Assembly (NCBI GenBank): GCA_021789915.1
Contig: JAJYIV010000002.1
Coordinates: 613-64,612 of the forward strand
Source of the DNA: a bacterium
GTDB taxonomy: Bacteria; Patescibacteriota; Patescibacteriia; UBA9934; GWF2-40-263
DNA: 64,000 nucleotides
Direction of reading: 5' to 3'
The notes beneath the pieces are model-generated. The model was not told where the DNA came from. It did not search any database and was given only the letters and a program-made list of their open reading frames with translations. This document shows, piece after piece, positions 2,118 through 59,530 of this stretch. The position numbers and the translations under genes were made by a program. The number at the start of each line of letters is the position of its first letter. Position 1 is the stretch's first letter.

Positions 2118-3944
2118 ATGTCCACCCAGACCCTCGTCCATCAAGACCCCGTCGTCTGCTCCATCGACCCGATCTCGACCATTGACGAGTATATCCACCA
2201 GGCCGACTGGCGGGTCAACGCGAACGCCAACCAGGGGTATTCGCTGGGCGGCATGATCCTGAACACCGTCGGCAAGGTGGTGGCGAATTACTGGCTTAAC
2301 AAGATTTACACCAAGGACATACGCGACGCGCATGTCCAGGGGGATTTTTACATCCACGATTTGGACGTGTTCGCCGGCTACTGCGCGGGGTGGAGCCTGC
2401 GCCAGCTGCTGGAGGAGGGCTTCAACGGCGTGCCGGGCAAGGTGGAATCGCTGCCGCCCAAGCACTTGGAGACGGCCGTGGCGCAGATGGTGAACTTCTT
2501 CGGCACGCTGCAGAACGAATGGGCGGGCGCCCAGGCGTTCTCCTCGTTCGACACGTACCTGGCGCCCTTCGTGAAGAAAGACCAGATGACCTACGAGGGC
2601 GTGAAGCAGTGCATCCAGCAATTCGTCTTCAACCTCAACGTCCCGTCGCGCTGGGGCACGCAGACGCCGTTCACCAACATCACGCTGGACTGGGTGTGCC
2701 CGGAGGACATGCGCGAGCGCCATCCGCTGGTCGGCGGCGAAGAGCAGCCGTTCACGTACGGCGATTGCCAAAAGGAGATGGACGCCATCAACAAGGCCTT
2801 CATCGAAGTCATGATCGCAGGCGACGCCAAGGGCCGCATCTTCACCTTCCCCATCCCGACCTACAACATCACGCGCGATTTCGACTGGGAAAACCCGAAT
2901 GTCCAGGGCCTGTTTGAAATGACGGCCAAATACGGCACGCCGTACTTCCAGAACTTCATCAATTCCCCGCTCAATCCGAGCGATGTGCGCAGCATGTGCT
3001 GCCGCCTGCAGCTCGACCTGCGCCAGCTGCGGCAGCGCGGCGGCGGCCTCTTCGGCTCGGCGGAGATGACGGGCTCCGTCGGCGTCGTCACCATCAACAT
3101 GGCGCGCCTGGGCCACGTTTCCAAGTCGAAAGAGGAGTTCTTCACGCGGCTGGACCGGCTGATGAAGCTGGCGAAAGAATCGCTGGAGCTCAAGCGCGAG
3201 ACGGTGGAGGACAATGTCCGACGCGGCCTGCTGCCGTTCACGCGCCGCTACCTGCCGTCGCTGCACAATCATTTTTCGACGATCGGCTTGAACGGCGTAA
3301 ACGAGGCGTGCCGGAATTTCTTCGGCGGCGACACGGACATCGCTTCGCCGGAAGGCAAGCAGTTCGCCGCGGACATCCTGGACTTCATGCGCAAGCGCTT
3401 GGCCGATTTCCAGGAAGAGACGGGGCACTTCTACAATCTCGAGGCCACGCCGGCGGAGGGCACGACGTACCGCTTCGCCAAGGAGGACCAGAAGCGCTTC
3501 CCCGACATCATCCAGGCCGGCACGACGGAGAATCCGTACTACACCAATTCGACGCACCTGCCCGTGACGCACACGGACAATCCGCTGGAAGCGCTGGACC
3601 ACCAGGACAGCCTGCAGACGATGTACACCGGCGGCACCGTGCTGCACCTGTTCCTCGGCGAACGCGTGCAGGATTGGAAGACGTGCCGCGCATTCGTGAA
3701 GAGCGTCGCCTACGGCTACCGCCTGCCGTATTTCACGATCACGCCGACGTTCAGCGTCTGTCCGTCGCACGGCTACCAATCCGGCGAACACCAGTGCTGC
3801 CCCACCTGCGGAGCCACCTGCGAAATCTGGTCGCGCATCGTCGGCTATTTCCGCCCTGTCGACCAGTGGAACCGCGGCAAGAAAGGCGAGTATGCCGAAC
3901 GCAAGGAATACGCGGTGCCGAACGCGTGCGAGACCTGCGTATGA
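2118..3944 (+). CDS. nrdD: Anaerobic ribonucleoside-triphosphate reductase (class III RNR)
   Basis: 608 aa; C-terminal glycyl-radical motif RIVGYFRP and a CxxC...CPTCG zinc site; stop overlaps the nrdG start (ATGA). Confidence 0.9.
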   Translation: MSTQTLVHQDPVVCSIDPISTIDEYIHQADWRVNANANQGYSLGGMILNTVGKVVANYWLNKIYTKDIRDAHVQGDFYIHDLDVFAGYCAGWSLRQLLEEGFNGVPGKVESLPPKHLETAVAQMVNFFGTLQNEWAGAQAFSSFDTYLAPFVKKDQMTYEGVKQCIQQFVFNLNVPSRWGTQTPFTNITLDWVCPEDMRERHPLVGGEEQPFTYGDCQKEMDAINKAFIEVMIAGDAKGRIFTFPIPTYNITRDFDWENPNVQGLFEMTAKYGTPYFQNFINSPLNPSDVRSMCCRLQLDLRQLRQRGGGLFGSAEMTGSVGVVTINMARLGHVSKSKEEFFTRLDRLMKLAKESLELKRETVEDNVRRGLLPFTRRYLPSLHNHFSTIGLNGVNEACRNFFGGDTDIASPEGKQFAADILDFMRKRLADFQEETGHFYNLEATPAEGTTYRFAKEDQKRFPDIIQAGTTENPYYTNSTHLPVTHTDNPLEALDHQDSLQTMYTGGTVLHLFLGERVQDWKTCRAFVKSVAYGYRLPYFTITPTFSVCPSHGYQSGEHQCCPTCGATCEIWSRIVGYFRPVDQWNRGKKGEYAERKEYAVPNACETCV

Positions 3945-4627
3945 GGATCGCTGGGTTCCAGCCGCTGTCCCTGCTCGATTTCCCCGAACGCCCCTGCGCC
4001 GTCGTCTTCACGCAAGGGTGCCCCTTGCGCTGCCCGTTCTGCCATAATCCGGGGCTCATCCCGAACGGCCCGGGGAAGATGCGCGCGGACGAGGTCCTTT
4101 CCGAGCTGGAACGCCACGCGAACACCGTCGCCGCCGTCTGCGTCACCGGCGGCGAGCCGACCGTGCAGCCGGACCTTCCGGCCTTTTTGCGCCTGCTCAA
4201 GCTGCGCGGCTTCGCCGTGAAGCTTGACACCAACGGCGTGCACCCGCGCATGGTCGCCCGCCTGCTCTCCGACCGTCTGGTCGACTACGTCGCCATGGAT
4301 TTCAAACACCGGTGGAGCGCCTACGCGGGGCTTACGAAGGCCGCGGCGCCGGCCGTCGAACACATCCGCCGGACGTTTTCCCTGCTGCAGCAAAGCGGCG
4401 TTCCGCACGAGTTCCGCACGACCGTCGTCCCCGCCTTCCACACGGCGGAAGACCTTGAACGCATGGCCGTGGAGCTTGCGCCGGGAACGTCGTGGGCCTG
4501 GCAGCCGGTGCGCTACGGCATCACGTACGATCCGAACCTCCCGAAGGGGGAAATGCCGCCGCTGGAAGAGATCCGCAGCCGCATCCTGGCGGCGCATCCC
4601 GATCTCTCGATTACGATTCGCCGCTGA
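3941..4627 (+). CDS. nrdG: Anaerobic ribonucleotide reductase activating protein (radical SAM)
   Basis: CPLRCPFCHN radical-SAM cysteine motif; translationally coupled to nrdD. Confidence 0.85.
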   Translation: MRIAGFQPLSLLDFPERPCAVVFTQGCPLRCPFCHNPGLIPNGPGKMRADEVLSELERHANTVAAVCVTGGEPTVQPDLPAFLRLLKLRGFAVKLDTNGVHPRMVARLLSDRLVDYVAMDFKHRWSAYAGLTKAAAPAVEHIRRTFSLLQQSGVPHEFRTTVVPAFHTAEDLERMAVELAPGTSWAWQPVRYGITYDPNLPKGEMPPLEEIRSRILAAHPDLSITIRR

Positions 4628-4666
4628 CAAAAACGGATCCGCGCGCGGATCCGTTTTTGTTGCCTT

Positions 4667-5584
4667 TCACACCCGCAGGTACCGCCGCATGGCAAGCGAC
4701 GTCGCGATCAGGTTCAGGATGGCGAGCGCGGCGAATTGCCCGCCGAAGATGAGCAGCCAGTTCTGCTGGAAATACGCGACGAGCCCCGTCTGGTAGCCGG
4801 CGCCGAGGAACACGTCGAGCTTCGGCTCCATCACGGCCACGGTCGGCAGCACGATGGCGACGACCACGAGCGTCGCGAGCAGGCTGTAGAACACGGCCTC
4901 GGCCAGGAACGGCCCCTTGACGAAGCGATCGGTGGCGCCTACCAGCTTCATGATGCCGATTTCCTCGCGGTGGATGAAAATGCCCATGCGCACCGTGTTG
5001 AACACGATGAGGACGGCGATCGCGAGGAACAACGCGGCGATGCCGATGCCCAGCGCGCGCGCCCGGTCCGTCAGGAAGCGGATGCGGTCGATGAGCTGGG
5101 AATAATTGCCGAAGTCCTTCTCGCGGATCTGGTCCTGGAATTGCGGATCCTGCAGCGCCTGGAGGATCACCGGAAAATCGTCCGCCGCGCGCGCCTTGAC
5201 GATGAGCGACGGCCCGAACGGATTGCCGCCCACTTCCGCGAGCGATTTCATGATGGCGTCCTCGCCGGCGTGCCGCGCCTTGAACTGGGCCAGGGCCTGA
5301 TCCGCCGTGACCGTCTCCACGTCCCGCACCTGCGGCAGGTTGCGCAGCTGCCCGGCGGCGGCCGTCAACTGGTCCGTCGTCACCTCCGGCTTGAAGTATA
5401 CGGACACTTCGACGCGGTCCTCGACCGCCTGGATGGCTTTCTGCGCCACGTGGTTCAGGACGACGAGGATGTTCACTGACAGAAGCGTCAGGGCAAGCAT
5501 GCTGACGGTGACGACGGACAGCCAGAAATTGCGCCAAAAGTTCTGGAACGCGAATTTCAGCACGCGCAGGAGGGGCGCCGTCAT
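4667..5584 (-). CDS. ftsX: Cell division ABC transporter permease FtsX
   Basis: 305 aa; 4-TM FtsX-like architecture; overlaps ftsE by 4 nt. Confidence 0.8.
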   Translation of the reverse strand: MTAPLLRVLKFAFQNFWRNFWLSVVTVSMLALTLLSVNILVVLNHVAQKAIQAVEDRVEVSVYFKPEVTTDQLTAAAGQLRNLPQVRDVETVTADQALAQFKARHAGEDAIMKSLAEVGGNPFGPSLIVKARAADDFPVILQALQDPQFQDQIREKDFGNYSQLIDRIRFLTDRARALGIGIAALFLAIAVLIVFNTVRMGIFIHREEIGIMKLVGATDRFVKGPFLAEAVFYSLLATLVVVAIVLPTVAVMEPKLDVFLGAGYQTGLVAYFQQNWLLIFGGQFAALAILNLIATSLAMRRYLRV

Positions 5585-6261
5585 AGTCGGTATTTTCCCT
5601 CTTCGACGTCCGAGACGATCCGGCCGCCGTCGAGGGCGATCACGCGCTTTTTGAGGCCGTTCACGACTTCGCGATTATGCGTCACCAGCACGACCGTGGT
5701 GCCGAACTCGTTGATCTTGCGCAGCAGCTCCATGATTTCGCGCGTGTTGATGGTGTCCAGGTTGCCGGTGGGCTCGTCGGCCAGCAGGATTTTGGGGCGG
5801 TGGACGAGCGCGCGGGCGATCGCGATGCGCTGCTGTTCGCCGCCGGACAGCTGCCTGGGGAAACGGTCGGCCTTGTCCTGAAGGTTCACGATGCGCAGGA
5901 CCTGCGGGACGATGTCGCGCACGCGCTCCAGCGGCAATCCGGAGACTTCCAGCGCGAACGCGATGTTCTCCGCCACCGTTTTGCGCTGGAGGAGCTTGAA
6001 ATCCTGGAACACGACGCCGATCTGCCGGCGCAGGAGCGGAACGTCGCGCTCGCGGATGCGGGTGATGTCCCAGCCGCCGACCACCACCTGACCTTCCGTC
6101 GGATGCTCCTCCGCGAACATGAGCTTGGCGAGCGTCGTCTTGCCCGTGCCGCTTTGGCCCACGATGGAAACGAATTCCCCGGCCTTGATATGCAACGAGA
6201 CGTCGCGCACGGCCGCGACGTTCGGATGGTAGATTTTGGTGACGTTCTTGAAGCGGATCAT
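5581..6261 (-). CDS. ftsE: Cell division ATP-binding protein FtsE
   Basis: Walker A GQSGTGKTT, ABC signature LSGGEQQR, Walker B ILLADEP; start taken at MIRFKNV. Confidence 0.85.
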   Translation of the reverse strand: MIRFKNVTKIYHPNVAAVRDVSLHIKAGEFVSIVGQSGTGKTTLAKLMFAEEHPTEGQVVVGGWDITRIRERDVPLLRRQIGVVFQDFKLLQRKTVAENIAFALEVSGLPLERVRDIVPQVLRIVNLQDKADRFPRQLSGGEQQRIAIARALVHRPKILLADEPTGNLDTINTREIMELLRKINEFGTTVVLVTHNREVVNGLKKRVIALDGGRIVSDVEEGKYRL

Positions 6262-6311
6262 GCCGTCTTGCGATTGGTCGGAACGTCGGCTATTATAGCG
6301 CACGCCATCGC

Positions 6312-11360: not shown

Positions 11361-12536
11361 TCACGCTATCTTCCGATGCTTCGAAATGTTCAGCACGACG
11401 CCGATCGCCGAGAGCAGCACCGCCAGCGACGTGCCGCCGTAGGAGACGAACGGCAGCGTAATGCCCGTCATCGGCATGATGGCGAGCATGGAACCGACGT
11501 TCACGAAGGCCTGCACGATGATCCACGCGGCGATGCCGACCACAACGTATTTCGAAAACGCGTCCGGCGCGCGCTTCGCCACCGTCAGCAGGCGCTGGAA
11601 CAGCAGGAGGAACAGGCCGATCAGGACCGCGCAGCCGATCAGGCCGAGCTCCTCGCCGATGACGGCGAAGATCGAGTCGCTGACGGCTTCCGGCAGGTAC
11701 TGGAATTTCTGGCGCGAATGGCCGTAGCCGAGCCCGAAGACGCCTCCGGAACCGATGGCCAAGAGCGCCTGGTTGACGTGATAGCCGATGCCCTGCGGAT
11801 CGAGCTGCGGGTTCAGGAACGTCATCAGGCGCGCGGCGCGGTACGGCGCGATCTTTATGAGCAGCGCCAGGCCGGAGGCGCCGGAAACCACCAGCCCCGC
11901 GATATACGGCAGCGGCGCGCCGGCGACGAAATACACCGCCAGGGCCTGCACGACGACGACGGACATCGTCCCGATGGCCGGTTGCGCGATCAGCAGGAGA
12001 AGGACGGCGCCGAGCGCGACGAGGAAGGGGACGAGGCCCGTGGAAAAACGGCGCATGCCGTCGGCGCCGCGGCGCTCGAGCCAGGCGGCGAGATAAAACA
12101 GAAAGGTCAGCTTGACGATTTCCGACGGCTGGAAGGAAAACCACGGACCGATGGAAATCCAGCTGTGCGCGCCGTTGATGTTGCCGGAGGAAATACCCGG
12201 GACGAAGACGAGCACGAGGAGTCCGAGCGAAGCCGCGAAGATCTTCATGGCGTGCCGGCGCCAGAACGTGTACGGCACGCGGCTGCACGCATACAGGCCG
12301 ATCAGCCCCGGCAGCAGGCCGAACACGAACTGGTGCTTGACGTAATAGGACGCGTCGCCGAACTGGTCGAGCCCCATGCCCGTGCCCGCCGACGCGAGCA
12401 TCAGCAATCCGAAAAGAAGGAGCGCCGCGACCAGGGCGAGCAGGACATAATCGACGCGATGAGGATCTTTCAGCGGCATGAGAACGGAAAGATGCTGAAC
12501 AGGCTCTTGGGCGTTGGCTAATGGCGAACGGCTCAT
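11361..12536 (-). CDS. ftsW: Peptidoglycan glycosyltransferase FtsW/RodA (SEDS family)
   Basis: 391 aa polytopic membrane protein with SEDS conserved blocks. Confidence 0.8.
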   Translation of the reverse strand: MSRSPLANAQEPVQHLSVLMPLKDPHRVDYVLLALVAALLLFGLLMLASAGTGMGLDQFGDASYYVKHQFVFGLLPGLIGLYACSRVPYTFWRRHAMKIFAASLGLLVLVFVPGISSGNINGAHSWISIGPWFSFQPSEIVKLTFLFYLAAWLERRGADGMRRFSTGLVPFLVALGAVLLLLIAQPAIGTMSVVVVQALAVYFVAGAPLPYIAGLVVSGASGLALLIKIAPYRAARLMTFLNPQLDPQGIGYHVNQALLAIGSGGVFGLGYGHSRQKFQYLPEAVSDSIFAVIGEELGLIGCAVLIGLFLLLFQRLLTVAKRAPDAFSKYVVVGIAAWIIVQAFVNVGSMLAIMPMTGITLPFVSYGGTSLAVLLSAIGVVLNISKHRKIA

Positions 12537-14761: not shown

Positions 14762-14771
14762 AAAGGAAAGC

Positions 14772-14800
14772 TTTTAGCCATTAGCCTTTAGCCATGAGCC
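14772..14800. repeat. Heptamer tandem array (TTAGCCA/TTAGCCT)
   Basis: GCTTTTAGCCATTAGCCTTTAGCCATGAGCC; same family as arrays at 21876, 26863, 55766 and 59468. Confidence 0.55.
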
Positions 14801-19051: not shown

Positions 19052-19477
19052 TTACGACGCCAGCCCGAGCTTTGCCTCGACGACCTGCAAACGCCCCTCG
19101 AAGCGATCCATCCGCAAGGTCGGCGCGACCAGCTCCTGCTCGATCGTCAGCTGCAGCCGCGCCACCTGGTCGCTCACGGCAAGGACTTCCTGACGAACGT
19201 CTTGAAGATCCTCCTTTGTCGCGAAACGGTCGAAATCGTCTTTCGTGGCAAAGTTCTGCAGATCGTCTTTCGTGGCAAAGTTCTGCAGATCGTCTTTCGT
19301 GGCAAAGTTCTGCAGATCGTCTTTCGTGGCAAAACGGTCGAAATCGGCCTTCATTGCCACATTCTCCTTTACGAAACCGATGAATTCGTGCATTTCCGAC
19401 GTTAAACCTTCGACCTTCCGTTCAAGGCCATCGAACTTCTGCGCCAGCTGATTTGTCGTCAGGTGTTCCTCACTCAT
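19052..19477 (-). CDS. Coiled-coil protein with four tandem 9-aa repeats (FATKDDLQN), low-GC gene
   Basis: 141 aa; encoded by 27-nt tandem DNA repeats; GC clearly below flanking sequence. Confidence 0.6.
   Translation of the reverse strand: MSEEHLTTNQLAQKFDGLERKVEGLTSEMHEFIGFVKENVAMKADFDRFATKDDLQNFATKDDLQNFATKDDLQNFATKDDFDRFATKEDLQDVRQEVLAVSDQVARLQLTIEQELVAPTLRMDRFEGRLQVVEAKLGLAS
19215..19345. repeat. 27-nt tandem repeat (GATCGTCTTTCGTGGCAAAGTTCTGCA, about 4.5 copies) inside a CDS
   Basis: Near-perfect direct copies seen directly. Confidence 0.8.
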
Positions 19478-19595
19478 ATATCGCTTCGAAGTATACGTCC
19501 TGAATTAAATCGCTTCAAACGAAAAGATCCCGCGTCTGTTTCAGACAGGGGATCTTTTGTCTCTGTGTGCATTTAAGCGGAAAAAACGGGTTTCG

Positions 19596-20252
19596 TCAAT
19601 CGTCGTGTGTGGATATCTTCCGCTCCTTCAACAAGATAAGCGCCCGTCCAGACAACGGATTCTTAAGAATGCCTTCGATCTTCCACGCCGCCTCCTTGAA
19701 ATGAATGCCTTCCCCTTCCAATTGCTTCTTCCATCGAGTGAGCGGCACCGCATGCAGTCCGCCGTCTAAAGCGGCGGCAGGCGCATCGATTTCTTCCAGG
19801 TCCATCACGTGAATGGCGATGCCGCCTTCCCGTAACGCATTCCATGAATTCATCAGGACGTCCCACTGCTTTTCCGTCTCGATGAACTTCAAGAAGACGT
19901 GCGCGTACGTGATGTCGTACGGCCCGCCGGGGAAAGGTTTTGTCGCGTCATGTCGAATGACGCCAGGCGCCCCAGCAAGATGCTCGATAGCAATGTCCGA
20001 GGTCGTGAGATCGACGTCTCGACCCAACAATGACGAAAAGATGCGACGATGGTGATCGATGAAGCGCCTGTCCCCGCATCCGACGACGAAGATGCGAACG
20101 TGTTCATGCGCAGGATGACAAGGAACAACCGAAAAGATAGTTTTCAATTCCCGTTCCTTGATGTCTGCTCGGCGTTGAATTTCCGCATCGGACAGCGCCG
20201 CATACTTTTTGTGATAGTCGGAGAGGGCCATATGAATTTTTCTATTGCGCAT
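19596..20252 (-). CDS. Class I SAM-dependent methyltransferase-like protein (low-GC)
   Basis: Motif I VVGCGDRRF, acidic end of beta-2 (DLTTSD), motif IV-like DITYAHVFL. Confidence 0.5.
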   Translation of the reverse strand: MRNRKIHMALSDYHKKYAALSDAEIQRRADIKERELKTIFSVVPCHPAHEHVRIFVVGCGDRRFIDHHRRIFSSLLGRDVDLTTSDIAIEHLAGAPGVIRHDATKPFPGGPYDITYAHVFLKFIETEKQWDVLMNSWNALREGGIAIHVMDLEEIDAPAAALDGGLHAVPLTRWKKQLEGEGIHFKEAAWKIEGILKNPLSGRALILLKERKISTHDD

Positions 20253-21864: not shown

Positions 21865-21875
21865 AGGGGGAAGCG

Positions 21876-21912
21876 GTTAGCCATTAGCTGTTAGCCGTTA
21901 GCTTCTAACTGT
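21876..21912. repeat. Heptamer tandem array (TTAGCCA/TTAGCTG/TTAGCCG/TTAGCTT)
   Basis: seen directly between pyrG and rplI. Confidence 0.55.
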
Positions 21913-24467: not shown

Positions 24468-24543
24468 CGTGGTGGACCTGATGGGAGTCGAACCCACATC
24501 TTATGGTGCTAACTCAGGCGAGGTTACCGTTTCCTCCACAGGC
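24468..24543 (-). ncRNA. tRNA-like element with encoded CCA and a non-canonical anticodon arm (tRNA pseudogene or tRNA-like small RNA)
   Basis: Acceptor GGGCCUG/CAGGUCC (one GU pair), D-arm GAGG-AAACGGUAA-CCUC, T-arm GUGGG-UUCGACU-CCCAU, discriminator A plus CCA; the 21-nt anticodon region cannot form a 5-bp stem. Confidence 0.45.
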
Positions 24544-24654
24544 CCCTATCCCTTCCCCGGGTCATTGGATAACGAAAAATCCCTCAGGCCCTTTCGGACC
24601 ATGGGGGATTCTTCTAGCACCAGGAGCAAGCCGTATGCTCACCTGAGTGACTCA

Positions 24655-25604: not shown

Positions 25605-26861
25605 TTATTCATACCGCAGCGCCTCGACGGGATCCAGGCGCGCGGCGTTGCGCGCGGGCAGGACGCCGAACACGATGCCGATGGCGGCGGAGACGCCGAC
25701 GCCGAGCAGGATGGCGGAAGGCGGGACGGCGAAGGTCCATGCCAACTGGTTGGCGCGCGCCACGGCGGCCACGATCCACCCGAGCAGGGCGCCCCAGGCG
25801 ATGCCCAAAGAGCCGCCGAGCACGGTCAGCAGCACGGCTTCCAGCAGGAACTCGCGCAGGATGGCGCCGCGCGTGGCACCGACGGCCTTCTTGAGGCCGA
25901 TCTCCGCCGTCCGTTCCGTCACGACGACGTACATGATGTTCATGATGCCCACCCCGCCCACCAGCAGCGAGATGGCGGCGATCGCGATCAGCAGGGCCGT
26001 GATGCCACTGAAGATCACGTTGAACGTATCAAGCGCCTGCGTCTGCGTCTGCACCTCGAAATCGTCCTTCGCCGGATCCGTGATCCGGTGATTGCGCTCC
26101 AGCGTGCTCCGGATTTCCGCCGCCGTCGCGTCGCCGAGCGACGTGTCGCGCATCTGCACGATGCCGACCGAGAGATAGTCGATGCCGAGCATCTTCTTCT
26201 GCGCCGTGGCGAGCGGGATGTAGGCGGAGCTGTCCGCCGTTCCGCCGAACGCCAGCCCGCCCTGCGGGGCGTACACGCCGATCACCTGGAAATTCAGCGT
26301 GCCCAGACGCACCAGCCGGCCGACCGGCTCGTTCTGGCCGAAGAGATCCTTGGCCAGGTCGCTGCCGAGGATGATGACCTGCGCCGCGCCCGCATCCTCC
26401 GCGGGCGTGTAGAAACGCCCTTCCTGCAGCGTGTGCTGGTCGATGCGGAAGCGCTCGGCCCCGGCGCCGTAGTAGATGACGCTTTTCTGATGGTTGCCCT
26501 CGCTGGCCTCCGCCTGGCCCGTCACCATGCCGTAGGCGTCCACGACATTCGGCAAACGGCGGATATCGTCCAAATCGCGCGTCTTGAACGTGTTGATGAC
26601 GATGCCCGTCACGCCGCCGCCCACGCCGGCCGAGAACTTCTGCGCGCGGCTCTTCGTCGTCGGCGGCACGCGCGTGCTGACGAACAGCGTGTTGCTGCCC
26701 AGGGCGTTCACCTGCGACGTGACGAGGCTGCGGAAGCCCGCGCCCGCGGACAGCACCAAGATCACCGTCGAAATGCCGATGACGATGCCGAGGGTCGTCA
26801 AGACCGTCCGGACGGGATTGGACGCGAGGCCGCGGAGGGATTGGCGAAAGGCGGGGAACAT
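25605..26861 (-). CDS. ABC transporter permease, MacB/FtsX-like (YknZ-like)
   Basis: 418 aa; N-terminal TM segment, large extracytoplasmic domain, C-terminal FtsX 3-TM bundle. Confidence 0.75.
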   Translation of the reverse strand: MFPAFRQSLRGLASNPVRTVLTTLGIVIGISTVILVLSAGAGFRSLVTSQVNALGSNTLFVSTRVPPTTKSRAQKFSAGVGGGVTGIVINTFKTRDLDDIRRLPNVVDAYGMVTGQAEASEGNHQKSVIYYGAGAERFRIDQHTLQEGRFYTPAEDAGAAQVIILGSDLAKDLFGQNEPVGRLVRLGTLNFQVIGVYAPQGGLAFGGTADSSAYIPLATAQKKMLGIDYLSVGIVQMRDTSLGDATAAEIRSTLERNHRITDPAKDDFEVQTQTQALDTFNVIFSGITALLIAIAAISLLVGGVGIMNIMYVVVTERTAEIGLKKAVGATRGAILREFLLEAVLLTVLGGSLGIAWGALLGWIVAAVARANQLAWTFAVPPSAILLGVGVSAAIGIVFGVLPARNAARLDPVEALRYE

Positions 26862-26862
26862 A

Positions 26863-26943
26863 GATGGCTGTAGGCTTTTAGCTTTTAGCTGTTAGCCGAA
26901 ATAGTTCCCATCCGGCCAGTAGCCAATGGCTAATGGCCAAAAG
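26863..26943. repeat. Inverted heptamer arrays (GCTTTTAGCTTTTAGCTGTTAGCC ... GCCAATGGCTAATGGCC) forming an intercistronic hairpin between the two permease genes
   Basis: seen directly; arms are reverse-complementary heptamer runs with a 23-nt spacer. Confidence 0.6.
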
Positions 26944-26949
26944 CCTCGA

Positions 26950-28212
26950 TCATTCATATCTCAGCGCCTCGATCGGATCCAGCCGCGCGGCCTTGAGCGC
27001 CGGATACAATCCGAAGCCGACGCCGGTCAGGACGGAGATGACCAGCGCCAGGACGACGGAAAACGGCGAGACGACATACGCCCACTCATAGCCCAGCGCG
27101 TGCATGACGAGAGCGGCTGCGAGCGCGATCGCGGCCCCGAGCGCGACGCCGACGAGCCCGCCTGCGCCCGTGAGCGCCGCGGCCTCCAGCAGGAATTGCC
27201 GTGCGATGGCGCCGTTGGTGGCGCCGACGGCCTTGCGCAGCCCGATCTCGCGCGTGCGCTCGGCCACCGTCACCAGCATGATGTTCAGGATGCCGACGCC
27301 GCCGACCACCAGCGAGATGGCCGCCATCGCGGCAAGGAACAGGCTGAGAGCCGACGTGATGGATGACAGGATGTTCATGATGTCGGCCTGGCTGCGCACC
27401 GTGAAATCCTCCTGGTCCTGCGTCCGCACGTGATGGCGTTCGTCCATCACCCGCGTGACGTCCGCGATGGCCTGCGGCACGTGCGCGGCGGCGTCGACCT
27501 TCAGGTCGATGAGCTGCAGATGGCGGATGCCGAGCAGCTGCTGCTGGCCGATCGGCAGCGGGAGGAAGACCTGGTCGTCCATGTTCACCACGGCGATGTT
27601 GCCGCGCGGATTGATCACGCCGACGACGCGCAGCGGCACGCCGCCGGCTTGCGCCTGCGCCGCGTTGCGCACCTTGATGACCTGCCCCACCGGATCCACG
27701 CCGCGGCTGCCGAACAATTCGTCGGCCACGGTGGAGCCGAGCACGGCGACGTTGGCGCCTGCGTCCGCCTGGGCGACGCTGAAATACGTCCCTTCGCGCA
27801 TGGTGAACGTCAGCACGTCCGGATGATAGCCGTCCGTGCCGAAAAAGTTGGTGTCGATGCTCTGATTGCCCCACGTCACCGTGGCCGTCCCGAGCACCAT
27901 CGCATCCGCCGCCTTGATGTGAGGCACGCGGCGCAAGGCGTCCGCGTCCGCGTTCGTCAGCGTCGTGACGACGATGCCGAAGAGCTGGACGGGCGGGCCC
28001 TTCTCGTTGCTCTTGCCCGGCTGCACGCTGAGCAAGTCGCTCCCAAGCTTGGTCACCTGCCCCAGGATGAGAGACTGCGCGCCGGCGCCCAATGCCAAAA
28101 TCACGATGACGCCGGAGACGCCGATCACGATGCCGAGCATGGTCAGCAAGGACCGCCCCTTGCGCGCCAACAGGGTGCGGGAGACGAGGCCGAACGTGTC
28201 GCGGACGTTCAT
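26950..28212 (-). CDS. ABC transporter permease, MacB/FtsX-like (second copy)
   Basis: 420 aa, same architecture as 25605..26861. Confidence 0.75.
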   Translation of the reverse strand: MNVRDTFGLVSRTLLARKGRSLLTMLGIVIGVSGVIVILALGAGAQSLILGQVTKLGSDLLSVQPGKSNEKGPPVQLFGIVVTTLTNADADALRRVPHIKAADAMVLGTATVTWGNQSIDTNFFGTDGYHPDVLTFTMREGTYFSVAQADAGANVAVLGSTVADELFGSRGVDPVGQVIKVRNAAQAQAGGVPLRVVGVINPRGNIAVVNMDDQVFLPLPIGQQQLLGIRHLQLIDLKVDAAAHVPQAIADVTRVMDERHHVRTQDQEDFTVRSQADIMNILSSITSALSLFLAAMAAISLVVGGVGILNIMLVTVAERTREIGLRKAVGATNGAIARQFLLEAAALTGAGGLVGVALGAAIALAAALVMHALGYEWAYVVSPFSVVLALVISVLTGVGFGLYPALKAARLDPIEALRYE

Positions 28213-28225
28213 AGACAGGAGTCAA

Positions 28226-28939
28226 CTATTTTCCCAACTCCCCTCGGTCCCCTGCCCGCGTGCGCTTTTTCACGACGACGTCCGAAACGACGAGGCCGTC
28301 CTTGAGGCGGATGATGCGCTTGGCGTGGTTGGCGGTGTCCGTCTCGTGCGTCACCAGGATGATCGTGCGTCCCTGGTCGTTCAGCGTCTGCAGGATGTCC
28401 ATCACGACGTTGCCGGATTTGGAGTCCAGATTGCCCGTCGGCTCGTCGGCGAAGATCACGGCCGGATCGCCCACGAGCGCGCGGGCGATCGCCACGCGCT
28501 GCTTCTCGCCGCCGGAGAGCTGGTTGGAGAGATGGCCCAGCCGATGCGTCAGCCCGACCGCCTCCAGCGCCCGGCGCGCCAGCGCGTCTTGGTTCCTCTT
28601 CGTCCCGTACAGCAGCGGCAGGCGCACGTTGTCGAGCACGGTCGTGCGCGGCAGCAGGTTGAACGCCTGGAACACGAAACCGACCCGCTCGTTGCGCAAG
28701 CGGGCCAGCTCGGCGTCCGTGAACGTGCGCGTGTCGCGGCCTTCGAAGAAATACGCGCCCGCCGTCGGGCGGTCCAGGAACCCGAGGATGTGCATCAGCG
28801 TGGATTTTCCAGAACCGGACGGTCCCATGACGGCGAGAAATTCGCCCGGCTCCACGGTGAAGCTGACGCCGTGGAGCACGGGCGTCACGACGTCCCCGTT
28901 GACGTAGTCCTTGCGCAGGTTTTCGACGCGGATGAGCAT
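28226..28939 (-). CDS. ABC transporter ATP-binding protein (MacB/LolD-type, YknY-like)
   Basis: Walker A GPSGSGKST, signature LSGGEKQR, Walker B IFADEPT, H-loop. Confidence 0.85.
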   Translation of the reverse strand: MLIRVENLRKDYVNGDVVTPVLHGVSFTVEPGEFLAVMGPSGSGKSTLMHILGFLDRPTAGAYFFEGRDTRTFTDAELARLRNERVGFVFQAFNLLPRTTVLDNVRLPLLYGTKRNQDALARRALEAVGLTHRLGHLSNQLSGGEKQRVAIARALVGDPAVIFADEPTGNLDSKSGNVVMDILQTLNDQGRTIILVTHETDTANHAKRIIRLKDGLVVSDVVVKKRTRAGDRGELGK

Positions 28940-28947
28940 GGGGGGAG

Positions 28948-30501
28948 TCAGTCAATCGCCACCACGACCGTCTGCCCTTCCGACAGGCCGCGGACAATCT
29001 CGTCCAGACCGTCGTCGGCCATCAAGCCGACCGTCACCGGCACCTCGTGGTAGGCGCCGCGCGCGGCATCGTCCACGACGCGCACGACCTGGGAGCCGTT
29101 GCGGTCGATCACCGCCGCCGACGGCACGGCCAGAACCTGCGAACGCTCGGCCGTGAGCACCGTCAGGTTGGCGGTCATGCCCGGCTTGATGTCCGGCGCA
29201 CCCTCGATGGACGCCTTCACCTTGTAGTCCACCACGCCCGCGATCACGGTCGAAGCGGGATTGATGGACGTGACGACGCCGGAGAAGTGCCGGTCCGGGC
29301 CGAGCGCGTCGAACGTGTCGTCGACGCTCTGGCCGACCGCAAGCGACGCGATGTCGGCCTCGCTGACCTGCGCTTCGGCGTACAGGTCGCCCACGTCCTG
29401 CAGCACCATCGCCTCCTGCAGCGCCGTCGCCTGCTCGCCCGCCTTCACGCTGACCGACGTGATCGTGCCGTCCGCCGGCGAGGCCAGCACCGTGTTGTCG
29501 AGCGCGGATTGCGCCGTCTCCACCTGGCCCTGGGCCGACAGCACGGCGGCGGCGGCCGCGGCGAGATCCGCCTGCGTCGGCGCCGCCTGCGCCTGCGCGA
29601 GCGACGCCTGCGCCTGCGCGCGCGACGCCTGGGCGGCGTTCACGCTCGCCTGCGCCGCGGCGACCTGCGTGTCGCGCGTCTTCTGCGCCGCGTCATACGC
29701 GTTCCTGTTCGTCACGTACGAGGCGTCCGTCGTGTTCGGCACGGCGATGGTCCAGGTATCGTTCGAGGAAGGCGACGACGTGCTGAATTTGATGAACAGC
29801 CCGTGCGTGCCGAGCGCCACCGGCTGCGTGCTGACGAATCCGTTGGCCGTCTCGAGGCCGGTCGCGTTGAATTGGATGCCGTTGCCGGTCTGGTACAGGA
29901 CGACGTCGTACGTCCCCTGCGCGGTACCGGCGTACGTGCCGCTCACGGTGATGGCCGCGCCGTCCGCATTGGCCGTGCCCGGCACGGCGGTGAACGTCGT
30001 GTTCATCAGCGCGGCTTGCGCGTTGGCGACGGCCGTGTCCTGCTGCGCCTGGACGGCCGCCAGATTGTCCTGCGCGTTTTGCAGCGTCACGTTGGCCGCA
30101 TCGACGGCTTTCTGCGCCACGGCGATCTGCTCGCTCGTACTGCCTTGCCGCACCTTCTCTTCGTTCGCCTGGGCCTGGGCGAGCGCGCCTTGCGCCGTGG
30201 TCAGCGCCGCGTGCGCGGACGCCTGGTCGATCACGGCGAGCGTCTGTCCCTTTTTCACGCGGTCGCCTTCGGCCACGTCGACCTCCCGCACCAGGCCGCT
30301 CGTCTGAAACGCCAGCGACAAATCAACCGTGCTCGTCACCTGTCCGGTGGCGAGAACCGTCGCGCGCAAATCCTGCCGCGTCACGGCGGCCGTCTGCAGC
30401 TTCGGCGCCTTTCCGCGGCGCGCCCAAGCGGCGATGCCGCCGCCGGCGACAAGGACGACGAGCATCCAAAACCACCAACGCTTGAGGAAGGAGAACTTCA
30501 T
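28948..30501 (-). CDS. HlyD/YknX-like periplasmic adaptor with a long Ala/Gln-rich coiled coil
   Basis: Start MKFSFLKRWWFWMLVVLV (TM anchor); biotinyl-lipoyl-like segments (GQTLAVID, GMTANLTVL) and beta-barrel C-terminus; the listed 710-aa ORF is over-extended upstream. Confidence 0.7.
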   Translation of the reverse strand: MKFSFLKRWWFWMLVVLVAGGGIAAWARRGKAPKLQTAAVTRQDLRATVLATGQVTSTVDLSLAFQTSGLVREVDVAEGDRVKKGQTLAVIDQASAHAALTTAQGALAQAQANEEKVRQGSTSEQIAVAQKAVDAANVTLQNAQDNLAAVQAQQDTAVANAQAALMNTTFTAVPGTANADGAAITVSGTYAGTAQGTYDVVLYQTGNGIQFNATGLETANGFVSTQPVALGTHGLFIKFSTSSPSSNDTWTIAVPNTTDASYVTNRNAYDAAQKTRDTQVAAAQASVNAAQASRAQAQASLAQAQAAPTQADLAAAAAAVLSAQGQVETAQSALDNTVLASPADGTITSVSVKAGEQATALQEAMVLQDVGDLYAEAQVSEADIASLAVGQSVDDTFDALGPDRHFSGVVTSINPASTVIAGVVDYKVKASIEGAPDIKPGMTANLTVLTAERSQVLAVPSAAVIDRNGSQVVRVVDDAARGAYHEVPVTVGLMADDGLDEIVRGLSEGQTVVVAID

Positions 30502-30596
30502 AATGAATGCGCCCATTCTAGGCCGGCGGGCGGCCAAAAACAAGACGCCGGATCGCTCCGGCGCCTTGGGAATCCGTTCTTCTTCGTCCTGCGCGC

Positions 30597-33353
30597 TCAC
30601 GGCCTGACATTGCGGCTTTCCAACGCCTGCGAAAGCGTACGGATGTTCCGTTCGTTCATGTCCACCAGGTTTTGCCAGTCGGCCTTCAGGGTGAATGGAG
30701 CGGATGCCAGGGATCGTTGCGCTTGAGCCAATTGCTGATGGGCCGTCTCCAATGCCTGTTGGAGATGCGGCACCGTCCATGCGGAGATGTCTTCGCCGGT
30801 GCGCTGAGTGATGTCGGTAACCCCCATGGCCTGTTCCGCACCGCTTGACGTCTGCGTCTCGACGACCTTGTCGCCTGACACGCGTGACACAGCCGTTGGG
30901 CGTTCGAAGAATGAAGAGCTGGCGGCATGTCCAGCTGCTGTGTGCGCGGCCGCGGTTTCGGCGACAGGATGCGCGGCGGCAACCGTCTCCGCGGCGGTCT
31001 GCGCGCGCGCCGCGACCGCGGCGGCCGCCTGTTCGTGGAACGGCGCGACGGCGGGAATGCGCGCCAGCCTGTCCTGCCATCCTTGCGGAAGCAGACGGCC
31101 GAACGGCCCATGTTGCAGCGCGAGGACTTGCTGCGTCAAGGCATCGACCAACGGTTCCCTTTGACCAGGCGCGGCGGCAGTGGCCTGCTCCAGCGTTTCG
31201 CGGACCTCCATGAGCTGTTTTCCGAAGGCGGCCTGATCCGCGGCGGACAGATGCTCGAACGCGTTCTTCCCCAGCATCGCCTCGCCCGCGGCATGCTCGT
31301 GCGCGGCGACCTGCGCCAGCACTTCCGCGTGGTGCTGCGCGAGCTGCGCGGCTTCCGCAGCCTGGTCAATGGCCGCGTGCGGCACGGGCGCCGCCGTCTC
31401 TACGGCTGCATGCGTGGCCGTTGCTGTTTTCGCCGCCGTCTCCACGGCTGCCTGCGCGTGCGTTCCGACGGCCGCCGCCGCTTCGGCCGCGTGGCCTTGG
31501 AGTTCCGCCAGGGTCTTCCCCGGCGCCAGGAATCCTTCCTTGACCGCTTCGGCGACGCTCATGCGGACGCCCTTGGCCGATTCCAGCACCAGCTTGCCGC
31601 CGACTTCGCCGACTTGGAAATTGCCGATCGCCTTGCTCGTGAGAAACAGGTCCGGCACGCCGCCTTTGCCCCACGCGCCGGCCGCTTCGACGACGTCGTG
31701 CGCGTGCTGCGCCGCGTCGATGTCCGTCGGATGCAGGCGCTCGATGATGCCGCTCAAGCTGTCGCCCTTGTGCACCATGACGAAGCCCTGGGCGCCCGCC
31801 TCGACATGCGCGCCCGCCGCGGCCGCGCCGGCCTCCGCGGCATGATGCGCCGGCGCACCGGCCGCCGCACCCGCCTCGCGGGTGTGACCCAGCAGACGAT
31901 GAAGCGTGTCGCCCAAAACGCCGCCGCCGACGAAGAGGCCCATCATGGTGCCGAAGAGCTTGGCGCGGCGTTCGTTGACGTTGTTCTTTTCACGCAAATC
32001 CGCCATCTGCCCGTCGGTTCTGTTCATCGCCTCGGTCATCTGTCTTTCGGTGCCCTGGAATGTTTTTTCCGCGAGCGCTTGTTCGAGTTTCCTGTACTGG
32101 GCGCGGAAATGTTCCTGGGTTGCATCGACTTTGCCTTCAAGGCCTTCTTTTGGTTCCCCAAGACTTACACCGTCGAAAACCGCGCGCTCGTTCATCCGCG
32201 TGAGCCGCGTCATGATGTCCTCGGCGCTCATCTTTGAGATATCCGCATCGGTAAACTTCTCGGCGTCGCGATTTTCGCCCGCTCTGCGGACGGCGTCCAT
32301 GCTGCCGTAGCCCATGCCGAGCCCGGAAGCGGCGCGGTTCATGGCCATGATGCCTCCCGTTACCGCAAGTCCGGCGCCGCTCACGGCAGCAGCGCCCATG
32401 AGTCCGTAGGTAATTGCCGTGCGCGCGTTCAAGGCCTTCTCACTGATTTTCGTGATGCCGTATCGAAGCGCTTGCGCGTACATGAGCGGATTGAACCAGC
32501 TCTTTTCCCTGATATCCGCCCGCACGTTCCGCATGCTCTCCTCGTACAGTTCCTTCTGTCTCTTTCCAAACAAATTCGAAATATTGAACGCACCGAGCTT
32601 GCGATAGCCCTCGTAGAATTTGCGGCCGAATCCTTTGTCCTTGCTCAATTTCCCGGCACGGACATCCGCGAGTTCGCGCAGTTCTTCGGTAAACTTTTTG
32701 GCATCGGCGCCAATCGCTTCCGAGCGCATGCCGAGATATTCCTGGCGCGCCGCCTCGAGCTCCGCTTGCGCCTGAACGTATCCCTTTTTCGTCTCTGAGA
32801 AAATGCCTCGGCGCACGCCGCCGGTTACGCCGCCGTATGTCTTTTCCATCTGGGCAAGCAACGTCGCATAGCGGTCGCGAGCGTTGGAAAGACTTTCACG
32901 CGACGGCTTGGGGGGTTCTCCCTCAATGACGTCCACATATCCAGGCGGATGCGGATCGCGCCCACCTCCAGGGGTCGTCTCTCCACCTCCGCCTTGCGGC
33001 TCGACAATGGTTGGCGGCTCTGTCTCTCCGCCTCCGCCTGGCGGCGTAGGTTCATCTTGTTTCAACGCCGACTTTTCCCGCGCCGTGGCAATCTCATCAT
33101 CGATTTTGGCAAGCGCAATTTCATAGCTCAGCACGTCCTTGAACAGTTCCGTGTGTCCGTAGATCTCCTGTCGCCGCTTGTTCAATGCATCCATTTTCGC
33201 CTTGATGGCGTCTGTCGAATCCTTCGGCCTTTCCGCTTCGTCCGCCTTAAGATCCGGCGCTTCCACGCCGTTCAACTCCCGCGGATCCCCGAATTTCCTT
33301 CCGGGCTCCAAATCCGGGGCCATCCCCATGTTCGGTCCCTCGTACCCTGCCAT
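30597..33353 (-). CDS. Large hypothetical protein (918 aa): low-GC N-terminal half, two central TM helices, LysM-like segment (VMVHKGDSLSGIIERL), Ala/His-rich C-terminal half
   Basis: Continuous GC3-consistent ORF; strong composition shift at about 32.4 kb; Gly-rich PGGGGETEPP repeats. Confidence 0.55.
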   Translation of the reverse strand: MAGYEGPNMGMAPDLEPGRKFGDPRELNGVEAPDLKADEAERPKDSTDAIKAKMDALNKRRQEIYGHTELFKDVLSYEIALAKIDDEIATAREKSALKQDEPTPPGGGGETEPPTIVEPQGGGGETTPGGGRDPHPPGYVDVIEGEPPKPSRESLSNARDRYATLLAQMEKTYGGVTGGVRRGIFSETKKGYVQAQAELEAARQEYLGMRSEAIGADAKKFTEELRELADVRAGKLSKDKGFGRKFYEGYRKLGAFNISNLFGKRQKELYEESMRNVRADIREKSWFNPLMYAQALRYGITKISEKALNARTAITYGLMGAAAVSGAGLAVTGGIMAMNRAASGLGMGYGSMDAVRRAGENRDAEKFTDADISKMSAEDIMTRLTRMNERAVFDGVSLGEPKEGLEGKVDATQEHFRAQYRKLEQALAEKTFQGTERQMTEAMNRTDGQMADLREKNNVNERRAKLFGTMMGLFVGGGVLGDTLHRLLGHTREAGAAAGAPAHHAAEAGAAAAGAHVEAGAQGFVMVHKGDSLSGIIERLHPTDIDAAQHAHDVVEAAGAWGKGGVPDLFLTSKAIGNFQVGEVGGKLVLESAKGVRMSVAEAVKEGFLAPGKTLAELQGHAAEAAAAVGTHAQAAVETAAKTATATHAAVETAAPVPHAAIDQAAEAAQLAQHHAEVLAQVAAHEHAAGEAMLGKNAFEHLSAADQAAFGKQLMEVRETLEQATAAAPGQREPLVDALTQQVLALQHGPFGRLLPQGWQDRLARIPAVAPFHEQAAAAVAARAQTAAETVAAAHPVAETAAAHTAAGHAASSSFFERPTAVSRVSGDKVVETQTSSGAEQAMGVTDITQRTGEDISAWTVPHLQQALETAHQQLAQAQRSLASAPFTLKADWQNLVDMNERNIRTLSQALESRNVRP

Positions 33354-33385
33354 AGGACAAGAACATTAAAAAGTAAGGTCTGCTC

Positions 33386-33721
33386 TCAGACGGCCGGATG
33401 ATGTTCGGCGTTTTCCACCAGTTCGGCCTTGACCTTTTCGGTTTCTTCGGACAGGAGTCTTGGCATGTCGAACCTTTCGCTTAAAAATGCCATGAGCTTA
33501 TCCGAATCATCCGACAGATCCTCGGCTTTTTTGGCGTCCGCCCCATCGAGCTGGGTCATGACGTCCAGCATCACCCGCTTAAGGACGAGATCGGCCATCT
33601 GATCCAAAAGAGCGACTTTCTTCTCATCTGGCAAGGCCTCAATTCCGAGCAAAGCAATGATGTTTTGGTTTTCCGTGCTCGTTTGTTCGGTCATAAAATG
33701 AGAGAGTGAATAAGTTTCCAT
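33386..33721 (-). CDS. Small acidic helical protein (111 aa, low-GC)
   Basis: METYSLSHFMTEQTS...; first gene of the minus-strand operon; chaperone-like composition. Confidence 0.5.
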   Translation of the reverse strand: METYSLSHFMTEQTSTENQNIIALLGIEALPDEKKVALLDQMADLVLKRVMLDVMTQLDGADAKKAEDLSDDSDKLMAFLSERFDMPRLLSEETEKVKAELVENAEHHPAV

Positions 33722-33766
33722 TAAGATTAAACTGGCACATTGTCGGGAAACGTTAAGAATGCCCGT

Positions 33767-33795
33767 ATGGTAAAACAGCCGCGCGGACTTCGCAA
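33767..33795 (-). promoter_or_regulatory. Putative sigma-70-like promoter (-35 TTGCGA, 17 nt spacer, -10 TACCAT) for the operon 33721 down to 25605
   Basis: seen directly in an AT-rich leader. Confidence 0.35.
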
Positions 33796-40470: not shown

Positions 40471-41595
40471 TCAGGAGACGAGGGGACGCGCGATCGCGGC
40501 GGCGAGCGCTTCCATCCCCTGCCCCGTCGCCGCGGACACCGGCGCCACGGCCGCGAAGGCCCCCGCGTCGAACGCCGGGCCAAGGCGTCGCCGCCAATCG
40601 GCGCCGGCGGCGTCGATCTTGTTCACCGCGAGCACGCGCGGCGTTTCCGCGGCGCCCAAGCGCTTCAGGATCTCGTCCACCACGCGCAGATGGTCCGCCG
40701 CATGCGCGTCGGCGGCATCCACGACCTGCACGAGCACGTCGGCGTCCGCCGCCTCCGAGAGCGTCGATGCGAACGCGTTCAAGAGCTCGGGCGGCAGATT
40801 TTGGATGAAGCCGATCGTGTCGGAGACGAGCACCTGGCGCGGCGGCTCGTTCTCTTTCCTTGCGACGTACAGCGAGCCAACGCGCGTGTCGAGCGTGGCG
40901 AAGAGCTCGTCGGCCGCATACTCGCGCCGGCGCGTGAGCCGGTTCAGCAGCGACGTCTTGCCGGCGTTCGTGTAGCCGACGAGCGCCGCCGTGGGCAGGC
41001 CCTGCCGCCGACGCCGTTCCTGGCGCGCGCGACGCATCGTCTGATACCGCGCGAGCTTCTCCCCGACCGCTTCGGCGCGCTCGCGCAGGTGCCGGCGCAT
41101 GATCTCCGTGTTCGTCTCGCCCTTGCCGCGCGTACCGGTGCCGCCGCCCTGGCGCGACAATTCCAGGCCCATGCCGTAGATGCGCGGGCCCATGTGCCGG
41201 ATGCCGGCCAACTCGATCTCCAGCCGCGCCTCCGTCGTGCGCGCGTGCTTGGCGAAGATCTTCAAGATGAGATCGAGGCGGTCCCACACCTGGAGGCCGG
41301 CCGGGCGCAGCGCTTCCGAGAGAAGATAGACTTGCCGCGGCTTGAGCCGGTCGTTGATGACCACGAGCGCCGCCCCGAGCCGCTTCCCTTCCTCGGCCAG
41401 CTGCTCGATCTTTCCCGTACCGAGGAATGTCGCCGGATGCGGCGCCGCGCGGCGCTGATGCGTCTTCACGACGACGATGCCGCCGTACGTGCGCACGAGT
41501 TCTTCCAATTCCTGCAGCCGATCCAAACTCTCCGCCTTCGTGAGCCGCGGCGGGATCAGATCGACGAGAATGGTTTTGAGGAGACGGTCGGCCAT
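40471..41595 (-). CDS. hflX: GTPase HflX
   Basis: N-terminal HflX domain plus G-domain (GYTNAGKTSLLN, DTIGF, NKID). Confidence 0.85.
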   Translation of the reverse strand: MADRLLKTILVDLIPPRLTKAESLDRLQELEELVRTYGGIVVVKTHQRRAAPHPATFLGTGKIEQLAEEGKRLGAALVVINDRLKPRQVYLLSEALRPAGLQVWDRLDLILKIFAKHARTTEARLEIELAGIRHMGPRIYGMGLELSRQGGGTGTRGKGETNTEIMRRHLRERAEAVGEKLARYQTMRRARQERRRRQGLPTAALVGYTNAGKTSLLNRLTRRREYAADELFATLDTRVGSLYVARKENEPPRQVLVSDTIGFIQNLPPELLNAFASTLSEAADADVLVQVVDAADAHAADHLRVVDEILKRLGAAETPRVLAVNKIDAAGADWRRRLGPAFDAGAFAAVAPVSAATGQGMEALAAAIARPLVS

Positions 41596-55765: not shown

Positions 55766-55836
55766 GCCGTTAGCCGTTAGCCGTTAGGAAAAAGGACGCG
55801 CAGCCCCCCAAAGCCAAAGGCTAATGGCTAATGGCT
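55766..55836. repeat. Inverted heptamer arrays (GTTAGCC x3 ... GGCTAAT x2) between co-directional genes
   Basis: seen directly. Confidence 0.6.
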
Positions 55837-59460: not shown

Positions 59461-59467
59461 GGGAAGC

Positions 59468-59530
59468 GTTTAGCCATTAGCCGTTAGCCTTTAGCATGTG
59501 TCTCTCGCCTGACGGCTGACGGCTAATGGC
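59468..59530. repeat. Inverted heptamer arrays (TTAGCCA/TTAGCCG/TTAGCCT ... CTGACGG x2, CTAATGG)
   Basis: seen directly. Confidence 0.6.

Follow-up and report, generated by a model that had tools for sequence, protein, structure and literature searches.

Six contiguous genes occupy the minus strand between 33.7 and 25.6 kb of a 64,000-nt window of Patescibacteria DNA, and all coordinates given below are positions in that window unless another locus is named. We consider it probable (roughly 0.6) that this stretch holds two independent units that are neighbors by chance, namely a gene pair encoding an envelope scaffold module and a conventional exporter. The first unit (33.7 to 30.6 kb) would be a module specific to the Patescibacteria (candidate phyla radiation, CPR), made up of an acidic cytoplasmic protein of about 100 residues, of DUF5663 type, and a large membrane protein. 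The second unit (30.5 to 25.6 kb) is a MacAB/YknXYZ-like exporter, which most likely forms its own transcription unit beyond a terminator-like hairpin at 30541–30568. An initial annotation, made from the DNA sequence alone, had presented the same genes as a single 8-kb operon in which the large protein served the exporter as cargo or accessory. The six minus-strand open reading frames (ORFs) that it described are all present at 25605–33721 with the sizes claimed; what changes is how they are grouped and what the first two may do.

Conservation and genomic context of the gene pair

Exact look-ups and pattern scans of genomes and metagenomes yielded 21 distinct loci encoding members of the large-protein family; scanning with a narrower core alignment gave 6 loci from genomes and 12 from metagenomes. 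Every one of the 21 encodes, directly upstream and on the same strand, a relative of the small protein about 100 residues long, with E values of 1e-10 to 1e-22 by phmmer and down to 1e-42 with a hidden Markov model (HMM). The gap between the two genes is 32 nt in the window. Homologs of the adaptor, the ATP-binding cassette (ABC) ATPase or the FtsX permeases were found in the flanks of none of these loci (0/21), at least 11 of which have downstream sequence of 3 kb or longer. The proposal that the large protein and the exporter are functionally linked is therefore not supported. The initial annotation had suggested checking whether the large gene is conserved beside the exporter, and had itself said that homologs never co-occurring with the exporter would refute the link; this is what the related loci show. 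Likewise, the 918-residue protein can hardly be upheld as exporter cargo or accessory when its constant companion is the DUF5663-type gene (21/21) and not an exporter gene (0/21). Adjacency in a single genome would have been misleading here.

The immediate neighbors of the pair vary from locus to locus and include genes for UvrD, a glycosyltransferase, a Translin-family protein, SecF, an M23 peptidase, leucyl-tRNA synthetase (LeuRS), an HtrA-like protease, GatA and a nucleoside deoxyribosyltransferase. Since these are diverse housekeeping genes, the pair does not sit in an island, and no conserved third gene was found with it across the loci. Thus the two genes are invariably adjacent and co-oriented, only the core of the large protein is conserved, and there are no fixed neighbors. 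The GC content of the loci spans 23% to 65%. The record titles of pair-bearing loci name Patescibacteria and Ca. Magasanikbacteria, and three metagenome-assembled genomes are titled "uncultured Gammaproteobacteria" (L007, L009 and L010); the latter carry a Patescibacteria-type pair and their labels are probably wrong.

Only in high-GC relatives does an additional ORF of 67–80 residues separate the DUF5663 gene from the large gene (L003, 548–790; L004, 9793–9996; L006, 503–718). Downstream of the pair, L003 and L004 also share a gene for a protein of 508 or 526 residues, of no known function, and a Translin-family gene. The window has neither these genes nor the extra ORF.

The large membrane protein and its family

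Judged by sequence comparison, the large protein (918 residues; 30597–33353, minus strand) is a member of a real, unannotated Patescibacteria family, which is new to annotation. The public gene call starts at Met9 and gives 910 residues. The protein has no match in Pfam, NCBIfam or PHROGs, and 46 full-length homologs scanned against Pfam matched zero families. It is a singleton in clustering at 90% identity, and in word-indexed protein searches neither the full sequence nor the core alignment brought up more than the protein itself or one fragment. The family was detected solely through an exhaustive HMMER search, which gave 65 representative relatives at E < 1e-3, 27 of them at E < 1e-10. Independent phmmer comparisons of the 918-residue protein with its homologs reach E values down to 1.7e-23, and the window ORF scores 9e-100 against the core HMM, the alignment of which includes the window sequence itself.

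All HMMER matches are confined to residues ~140–540 of the query, and both tails are variable. This conserved core (31734–32936), delimited by the match extent and the alignment, comprises about 380 residues in the family alignment. It begins with a helical region, followed by a basic aromatic helix, KGFGxKFYxxYKKLGxWN, and a Gly-rich hydrophobic segment (residues 313–338) of the form SVRTAISxGLLG...RRxxxGxGxGxGSYDLM. Next come a helical segment of about 120 residues and a second hydrophobic helix, GxFVGSGxLA (residues 466–484); a GDS-type motif lies near the end of the core, at residues 528–545. The window copy deviates in the core motifs, having YRKLGAFN and GSMDAV. The lineage-specific parts are the N-terminal 140 residues, which include the GGGGET repeats, and the C-terminal ~380 residues. 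The latter form an Ala/His-rich tail (30597–31733), recognized by its composition and by homolog matches that are only compositional, and the gene carries a 42-bp tandem repeat there (31384–31480).

The features listed for this protein in the initial annotation were largely borne out. There are two copies of GGGGET, strongly hydrophobic segments occur only at residues 313–338 and 466–484, and residues 500–800 are rich in Ala and His. The LysM-like segment, however, has no match to a LysM model. About 24 of the 65 family members have, after the second hydrophobic helix, a motif h-x-h-x-x-G-[DGN]-S-h-W/Y, which in the window protein reads VMVHKGDSLSGIIERL. This resembles the start of LysM (PF01476), hydrophobic-x-V-x-x-GD-[ST]-[LV]-x-x-[IL], whereas the second half of the LysM domain is unrecognizable in the window protein. 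Residues 514–618 and seven homolog segments gave no match to PF01476 at E <= 10, and the whole protein gave none at E <= 0.01. Membership in LysM is not supported, and we treat the resemblance of this segment as a lead only.

The small acidic protein

The first gene of the pair (33386–33694, minus strand) encodes an acidic helical protein that appears to be a divergent partner of DUF5663 type. It had been described as having 111 residues. That ORF is present (33386–33721, from an alternative start at 33721) and its product is acidic, with an isoelectric point of 4.4, but alignment with homologs favors the second Met, at 33694, which gives 102 residues. An AlphaFold2 model of the protein has five helices, with a predicted local distance difference test score (pLDDT) of 74. 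A promoter had been predicted at about 33.78 kb, upstream of this gene; a consensus scan of the minus strand revealed no sigma-70-like site there, although the promoters of this lineage may not fit the consensus.

The window protein has no match in Pfam or NCBIfam, its best PHROGs match has E = 0.09, and it does not match PF18908 (DUF5663; gathering threshold 23.7 bits) even at E <= 10. The assignment to this type comes through its relatives. Fourteen of 18 aligned upstream homologs match PF18908, the window protein aligns over its full length with proteins that pass this model (28–45% identity), and it scores 120 bits against a profile whose 17 database matches all carry PF18908. Length, acidity and helical pattern are common to DUF5663 and the window protein; the difference is that the window protein is too divergent to reach the Pfam model. 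DUF5663 itself has no known function.

One locus, L025, has a distant DUF5663 gene with no member of the large-protein family after it. There (2729–6309) the DUF5663 gene lies downstream of a gene for a 1081-residue protein, the sole Pfam match of which is FtsK_gamma, and upstream of a UvrD helicase gene. A LysM-M23 peptidase gene is nearby.

Proposed role of the pair

Our best guess, based on predicted architecture and gene context, is that the pair encodes an envelope scaffold anchored in the membrane, together with a small partner in the cytoplasm. The N-terminal 310 residues of the large protein and its helical segment 339–465 would be cytoplasmic. The Gly-rich hydrophobic segment (313–338) would dip into or loop through the membrane as a hairpin or re-entrant segment, and the second hydrophobic helix (466–484) would cross it, placing the variable Ala/His-rich tail outside the cell. 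This topology is consistent with the charge distribution in the family, where the 15 residues preceding the first hydrophobic segment contain on average 3.8 Lys and Arg, those preceding the second contain 6.1, and a net acidic flank follows the second. In many homologs the second hydrophobic segment leads into a Pro-rich linker. The AlphaFold2 model of the core is all-helical, with a mean pLDDT of 63 and values of 85–94 in the first helical region. The small acidic protein may bind the cytoplasmic core, which is conserved and basic, either as its stoichiometric partner or as an assembly factor, and the two together would form a scaffold linking the cytoplasm to the cell envelope or surface.

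Several points weigh against this reading. The core model is poor in the membrane region (pLDDT 30–50), so that the topology is predicted from charge bias only, and it is gene adjacency alone that points to binding between the two proteins. Domain, fold and literature searches for the pair gave no match beyond the DUF5663 label. The core profile had no match below E = 0.79 among PDB sequences, and nothing on DUF5663 or PF18908 came up in the literature library searched. A Foldseek comparison had been proposed for the 918-residue protein; run with the core model against the PDB, it gave nothing below E = 1, only generic helical matches. The 21 loci are not fully independent, since several belong to related lineages. 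With regard to the separation from the exporter, the public gene call has an adaptor of 550 residues beginning at a GTG at 30600, which overlaps the stop codon of the large gene (GTGA). If correct, that start would imply translational coupling and co-transcription. Transcription may also read through the hairpin between the two genes.

If the pair is an envelope module, what would it serve? One possibility is that it is a lineage-specific component of division or wall synthesis, a tether of FtsZ/FtsA or of wall synthases comparable to MapZ, ZipA, EzrA or FtsN. The one neighbor of the pair that recurs is ftsA-ftsZ, which directly precedes it in four loci of a single low-GC clade (pairs at L008, 6760–9203; L015, 4554–7067; L026, 3230–5638; L014, 1–960). 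In L004 mraY-ftsW-murG lie upstream of the pair and a Mur ligase gene downstream, and the M23 peptidases, SecF and HtrA-like protease encoded beside it elsewhere would fit as well. By analogy only, the predicted arrangement of a cytoplasmic helical domain, membrane anchor, linker and external tail is that of the bitopic tethers named above. However, there is no sequence or fold similarity to those four proteins and no homology to known divisome proteins, the GDS motif fails the LysM model, and the ftsAZ linkage is not general, being limited to one clade while most loci, including the window, have unrelated neighbors. A literature query on the FtsZ neighborhood in Patescibacteria returned nothing relevant. 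We regard this explanation as unlikely. Bolder, and in our estimate somewhat less probable, is the idea that the pair forms a Patescibacteria-specific envelope-spanning complex for division or wall organization, which replaces the divisome tethers that these reduced genomes lack. Were this so, the conserved cytoplasmic core would interact with the cytoskeleton, and the external tail, which evolves fast, with the wall or the host surface.

The large protein could also be a surface adhesin or host-interaction protein of an episymbiont, with a rapidly diversifying external tail and with the small protein as its cytoplasmic chaperone. Its N- and C-terminal regions are hypervariable relative to the conserved core, the tail has tandem repeats and low-complexity sequence, the charge bias predicts a C-terminus outside the cell, and the mosaic synonymous GC content described below suggests recombination. 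Nevertheless, we find this quite improbable. The protein has no signal peptide, adhesin fold or adhesin-type repeat domain, and its tail, Ala/His-rich and only putatively surface-exposed, is probably helical or disordered. Moreover, conservation lies in the cytoplasmic and membrane part, which would be unusual for a simple adhesin.

Returning to the scaffold reading, what is new is the obligate genomic partner of DUF5663, a family of large membrane proteins seen here in Patescibacteria metagenome-assembled genomes, for which Pfam has no model and searches of structures and literature gave no match. The conserved core and the likely topology of this partner are now defined, which makes the pair a two-protein target for the study of envelope biology in reduced, largely uncultivated bacteria. 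It should be added that the pair is one of many lineage-specific unknowns, and that the exporter beside it is routine.

The MacAB-type exporter

By homology, the downstream four genes are those of an ordinary MacA/MacB (YknXYZ-like) ABC exporter with an adaptor, an ATPase and two paralogous FtsX-fold permeases, as the initial annotation had proposed and as searches of Pfam, NCBIfam and the PDB bear out. The genes lie on the minus strand in the order adaptor (28948–30501, 517 residues), ATPase (28226–28939, 237 residues), permease 1 (26950–28212, 420 residues) and permease 2 (25605–26861, 418 residues).

Both permeases match MacB_PCD (E values of 7e-38 and 2e-36) and FtsX (2e-19 and 1e-17), all above the Pfam cut-offs, and both have NCBIfam matches. 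They have the layout of MacB, with a periplasmic core domain between transmembrane (TM) helices 1 and 2 and a C-terminal FtsX domain. The closest solved structures in the PDB search for the permease were MacB (4.6e-56) and the pneumococcal permease Spr0695 (5xu1; 1e-38). The two permeases are paralogs with 37% identity and are therefore likely to pair as a heterodimer that works with the separate ATPase, in the manner of LolCDE or YknYZ. The ATPase is of MacB/LolD/FtsE type. It matches ABC_tran in Pfam (5.6e-33), its best NCBIfam matches are the MacB nucleotide-binding domain (1e-68) and LolD (2e-68), and its translation shows Walker A (GPSGSGKST), signature (LSGGEKQR) and Walker B (IFADEPTGNLD) motifs. 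It is encoded by a gene of its own and is not fused to a permease, the arrangement that defines E. coli MacB in the strict sense.

The adaptor is a membrane-fusion protein of MacA/HlyD type. Its Pfam matches to HlyD_D23, Biotin_lipoyl_2 and HlyD_3 are above cut-off, as is characteristic of the HlyD/MacA family; it scores 1.3e-46 against TIGR01730 in NCBIfam (159 bits against a cut-off of 94.9) and 2e-25 against MacA in the PDB. At residues ~166–265 (29700–30000) it has a Thr/Gly/Ala-rich insertion of about 100 residues, TFTAVPGTANADGAAITVSGTYAGTAQGTYDVVLYQTGNGIQF, where MacA has its coiled-coil hairpin. This insertion is outside the main alignment stretches with MacA and TIGR01730. No outer-membrane channel was identified, though no search aimed at one was made; a TolC-family duct would not be expected in a monoderm Patescibacteria host.

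The system thus resembles MacAB(-TolC) of E. coli, YknXYZ of B. subtilis and Spr0693-0694-0695 of S. pneumoniae in its adaptor with barrel-sandwich and lipoyl domains, in its permeases with four TM helices, a MacB periplasmic core and an FtsX domain, and in its MacB/LolD-like ATPase. It differs from E. coli MacB in having the ATPase encoded apart from the permease, like YknY/YknZ, Spr0694/0695 and LolD/LolCE, and from MacAB in having two paralogous permease genes, which implies a heterodimer as in LolCE. The combination of one ATPase with two different FtsX-fold permeases is shared with LolCDE. However, the Lol cut-offs are far from reached (47 bits versus 362), and Lol systems lack the adaptor gene that this exporter has.

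Transcription units and the start of the adaptor gene

The question then is whether the pair and the exporter belong to one operon. If they do, the small and large proteins could be cargo, chaperone or accessory of the exporter, with all six genes co-transcribed. The genes are contiguous and on the same strand, the overlap (GTGA) in the public gene call would couple the large gene to the adaptor gene, and in synonymous GC content the pair departs from the exporter genes. The exporter had been said to follow the large gene directly. Taking the adaptor to start at the ATG at 30501, a spacer of 95 nt separates that codon from the stop codon of the large gene, and this spacer contains the terminator-like hairpin on the minus strand, with a 12-bp stem (8 G-C pairs; −22.9 kcal/mol) followed by TTTTT.

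The overlapping start, for its part, requires 33 extra codons in the 550-residue adaptor. Their GC content at third codon positions (GC3) is 0.70, below that of all 490 windows of the same size from the four exporter genes (minimum 0.76, mean 0.92), and the 517-residue form aligns to family profiles from its N-terminus. Because of the atypical GC3 of the extension, the hairpin embedded in it and the alignment of the 517-residue form, the 550-residue form is disfavored. The public call is probably over-extended, a point that we flag for its annotation, and the true start would be the ATG at 30501 or 30516.

The six contiguous genes share a strand, but the terminator-like hairpin and the codon statistics, which favor a spacer over an overlapping extension, make a single 8-kb operon doubtful. 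Two transcription units are favored on these two grounds. Together with the lack of exporter components in the 21 related loci, this makes it very unlikely that the pair serves the exporter, and the reading of two independent units is preferred.

A weak 5-bp hairpin with a T-run at 33378–33391 overlaps the small gene's stop codon, which lies 32 nt ahead of the large gene. In this region such sites do not exceed the chance expectation, with 11 found against 7.4.

Base composition of the pair

A break in GC content within the large gene had been taken as a sign that a cargo or accessory module was fused or acquired. The break holds up at synonymous sites. Fourfold-degenerate positions have a GC content of 0.90–0.97 in eight neighboring genes and of 0.81 in the small gene, and along the large gene it is 0.68 for residues 1–140, 0.78 for residues 141–480 in the core, 0.89 for residues 481–800 and 0.66 for residues 801–918. 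The break persists at fourfold-degenerate sites, and low-complexity coding, which the initial annotation had named as an explanation that would refute its reading, therefore does not by itself account for it. Its position does need correction; the step is near 31.9–32.0 kb (residue ~480) and not at 32.4 kb, and GC drops again in the last 118 codons, so that the gene is a mosaic. The step falls where the family-conserved core gives way to the lineage-specific tail, and the explanation by fusion of an exporter accessory is not sustained.

Low synonymous GC combined with a mosaic pattern suggests that segments of the pair were exchanged with lower-GC relatives. In L003 (65% GC) the GC3 of the pair is slightly below that of its neighbors, and in L004 there is no difference. 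Elsewhere in the window, two other minus-strand ORFs at 19052–20252, one of them with a methyltransferase domain, also have low GC3 (0.63–0.70), and compositional heterogeneity is therefore not confined to the pair. The interval 19–20 kb is the lowest-GC kilobase of the window (0.53).

That the pair is a horizontally acquired mobile element or phage remnant, resembling a tape-measure protein and its small acidic chaperone, is most improbable: a large helical protein whose hydrophobic segments are Gly-rich, with one or two small acidic proteins encoded ahead of it, and the atypically low GC3 in the window would fit, but PHROGs had no match for the large protein and, for the small one, nothing better than E = 0.09, the neighbors are housekeeping genes with no phage genes in all loci, and the pair is present in one copy per locus and conserved across Patescibacteria from 23% to 65% GC.

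Heptamer repeats and RNA genes in the window

The spacer between the two permease genes (26862–26949) contains inverted arrays of a GCTAANN heptamer that form a hairpin. The initial annotation had noticed this hairpin, and its folding is indeed strong (−36.3 kcal/mol, z = −4.3), but it is not specific to the operon. Tandem arrays of three to four copies are found at six sites in the window, 12517–12532, 14770–14799, 21873–21902, 26867–26944, 55766–55835 and 59466–59530, with 19 matches against 0.07 expected. The arrays are intergenic and mostly just 5' of start codons. At three of the sites (the permease spacer, 55.8 kb and 59.5 kb) they occur as inverted pairs with predicted long hairpins. 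They look like a dispersed, genome-specific repeat and not a feature of the exporter operon.

ARAGORN reported a tRNA-Ala(GGC) of 94 nt at 40523–40616, which Rfam did not report, and a tRNA-Ala with the unusual anticodon AGC at 24470–24545, which has a weak Rfam score of 39.8 bits.

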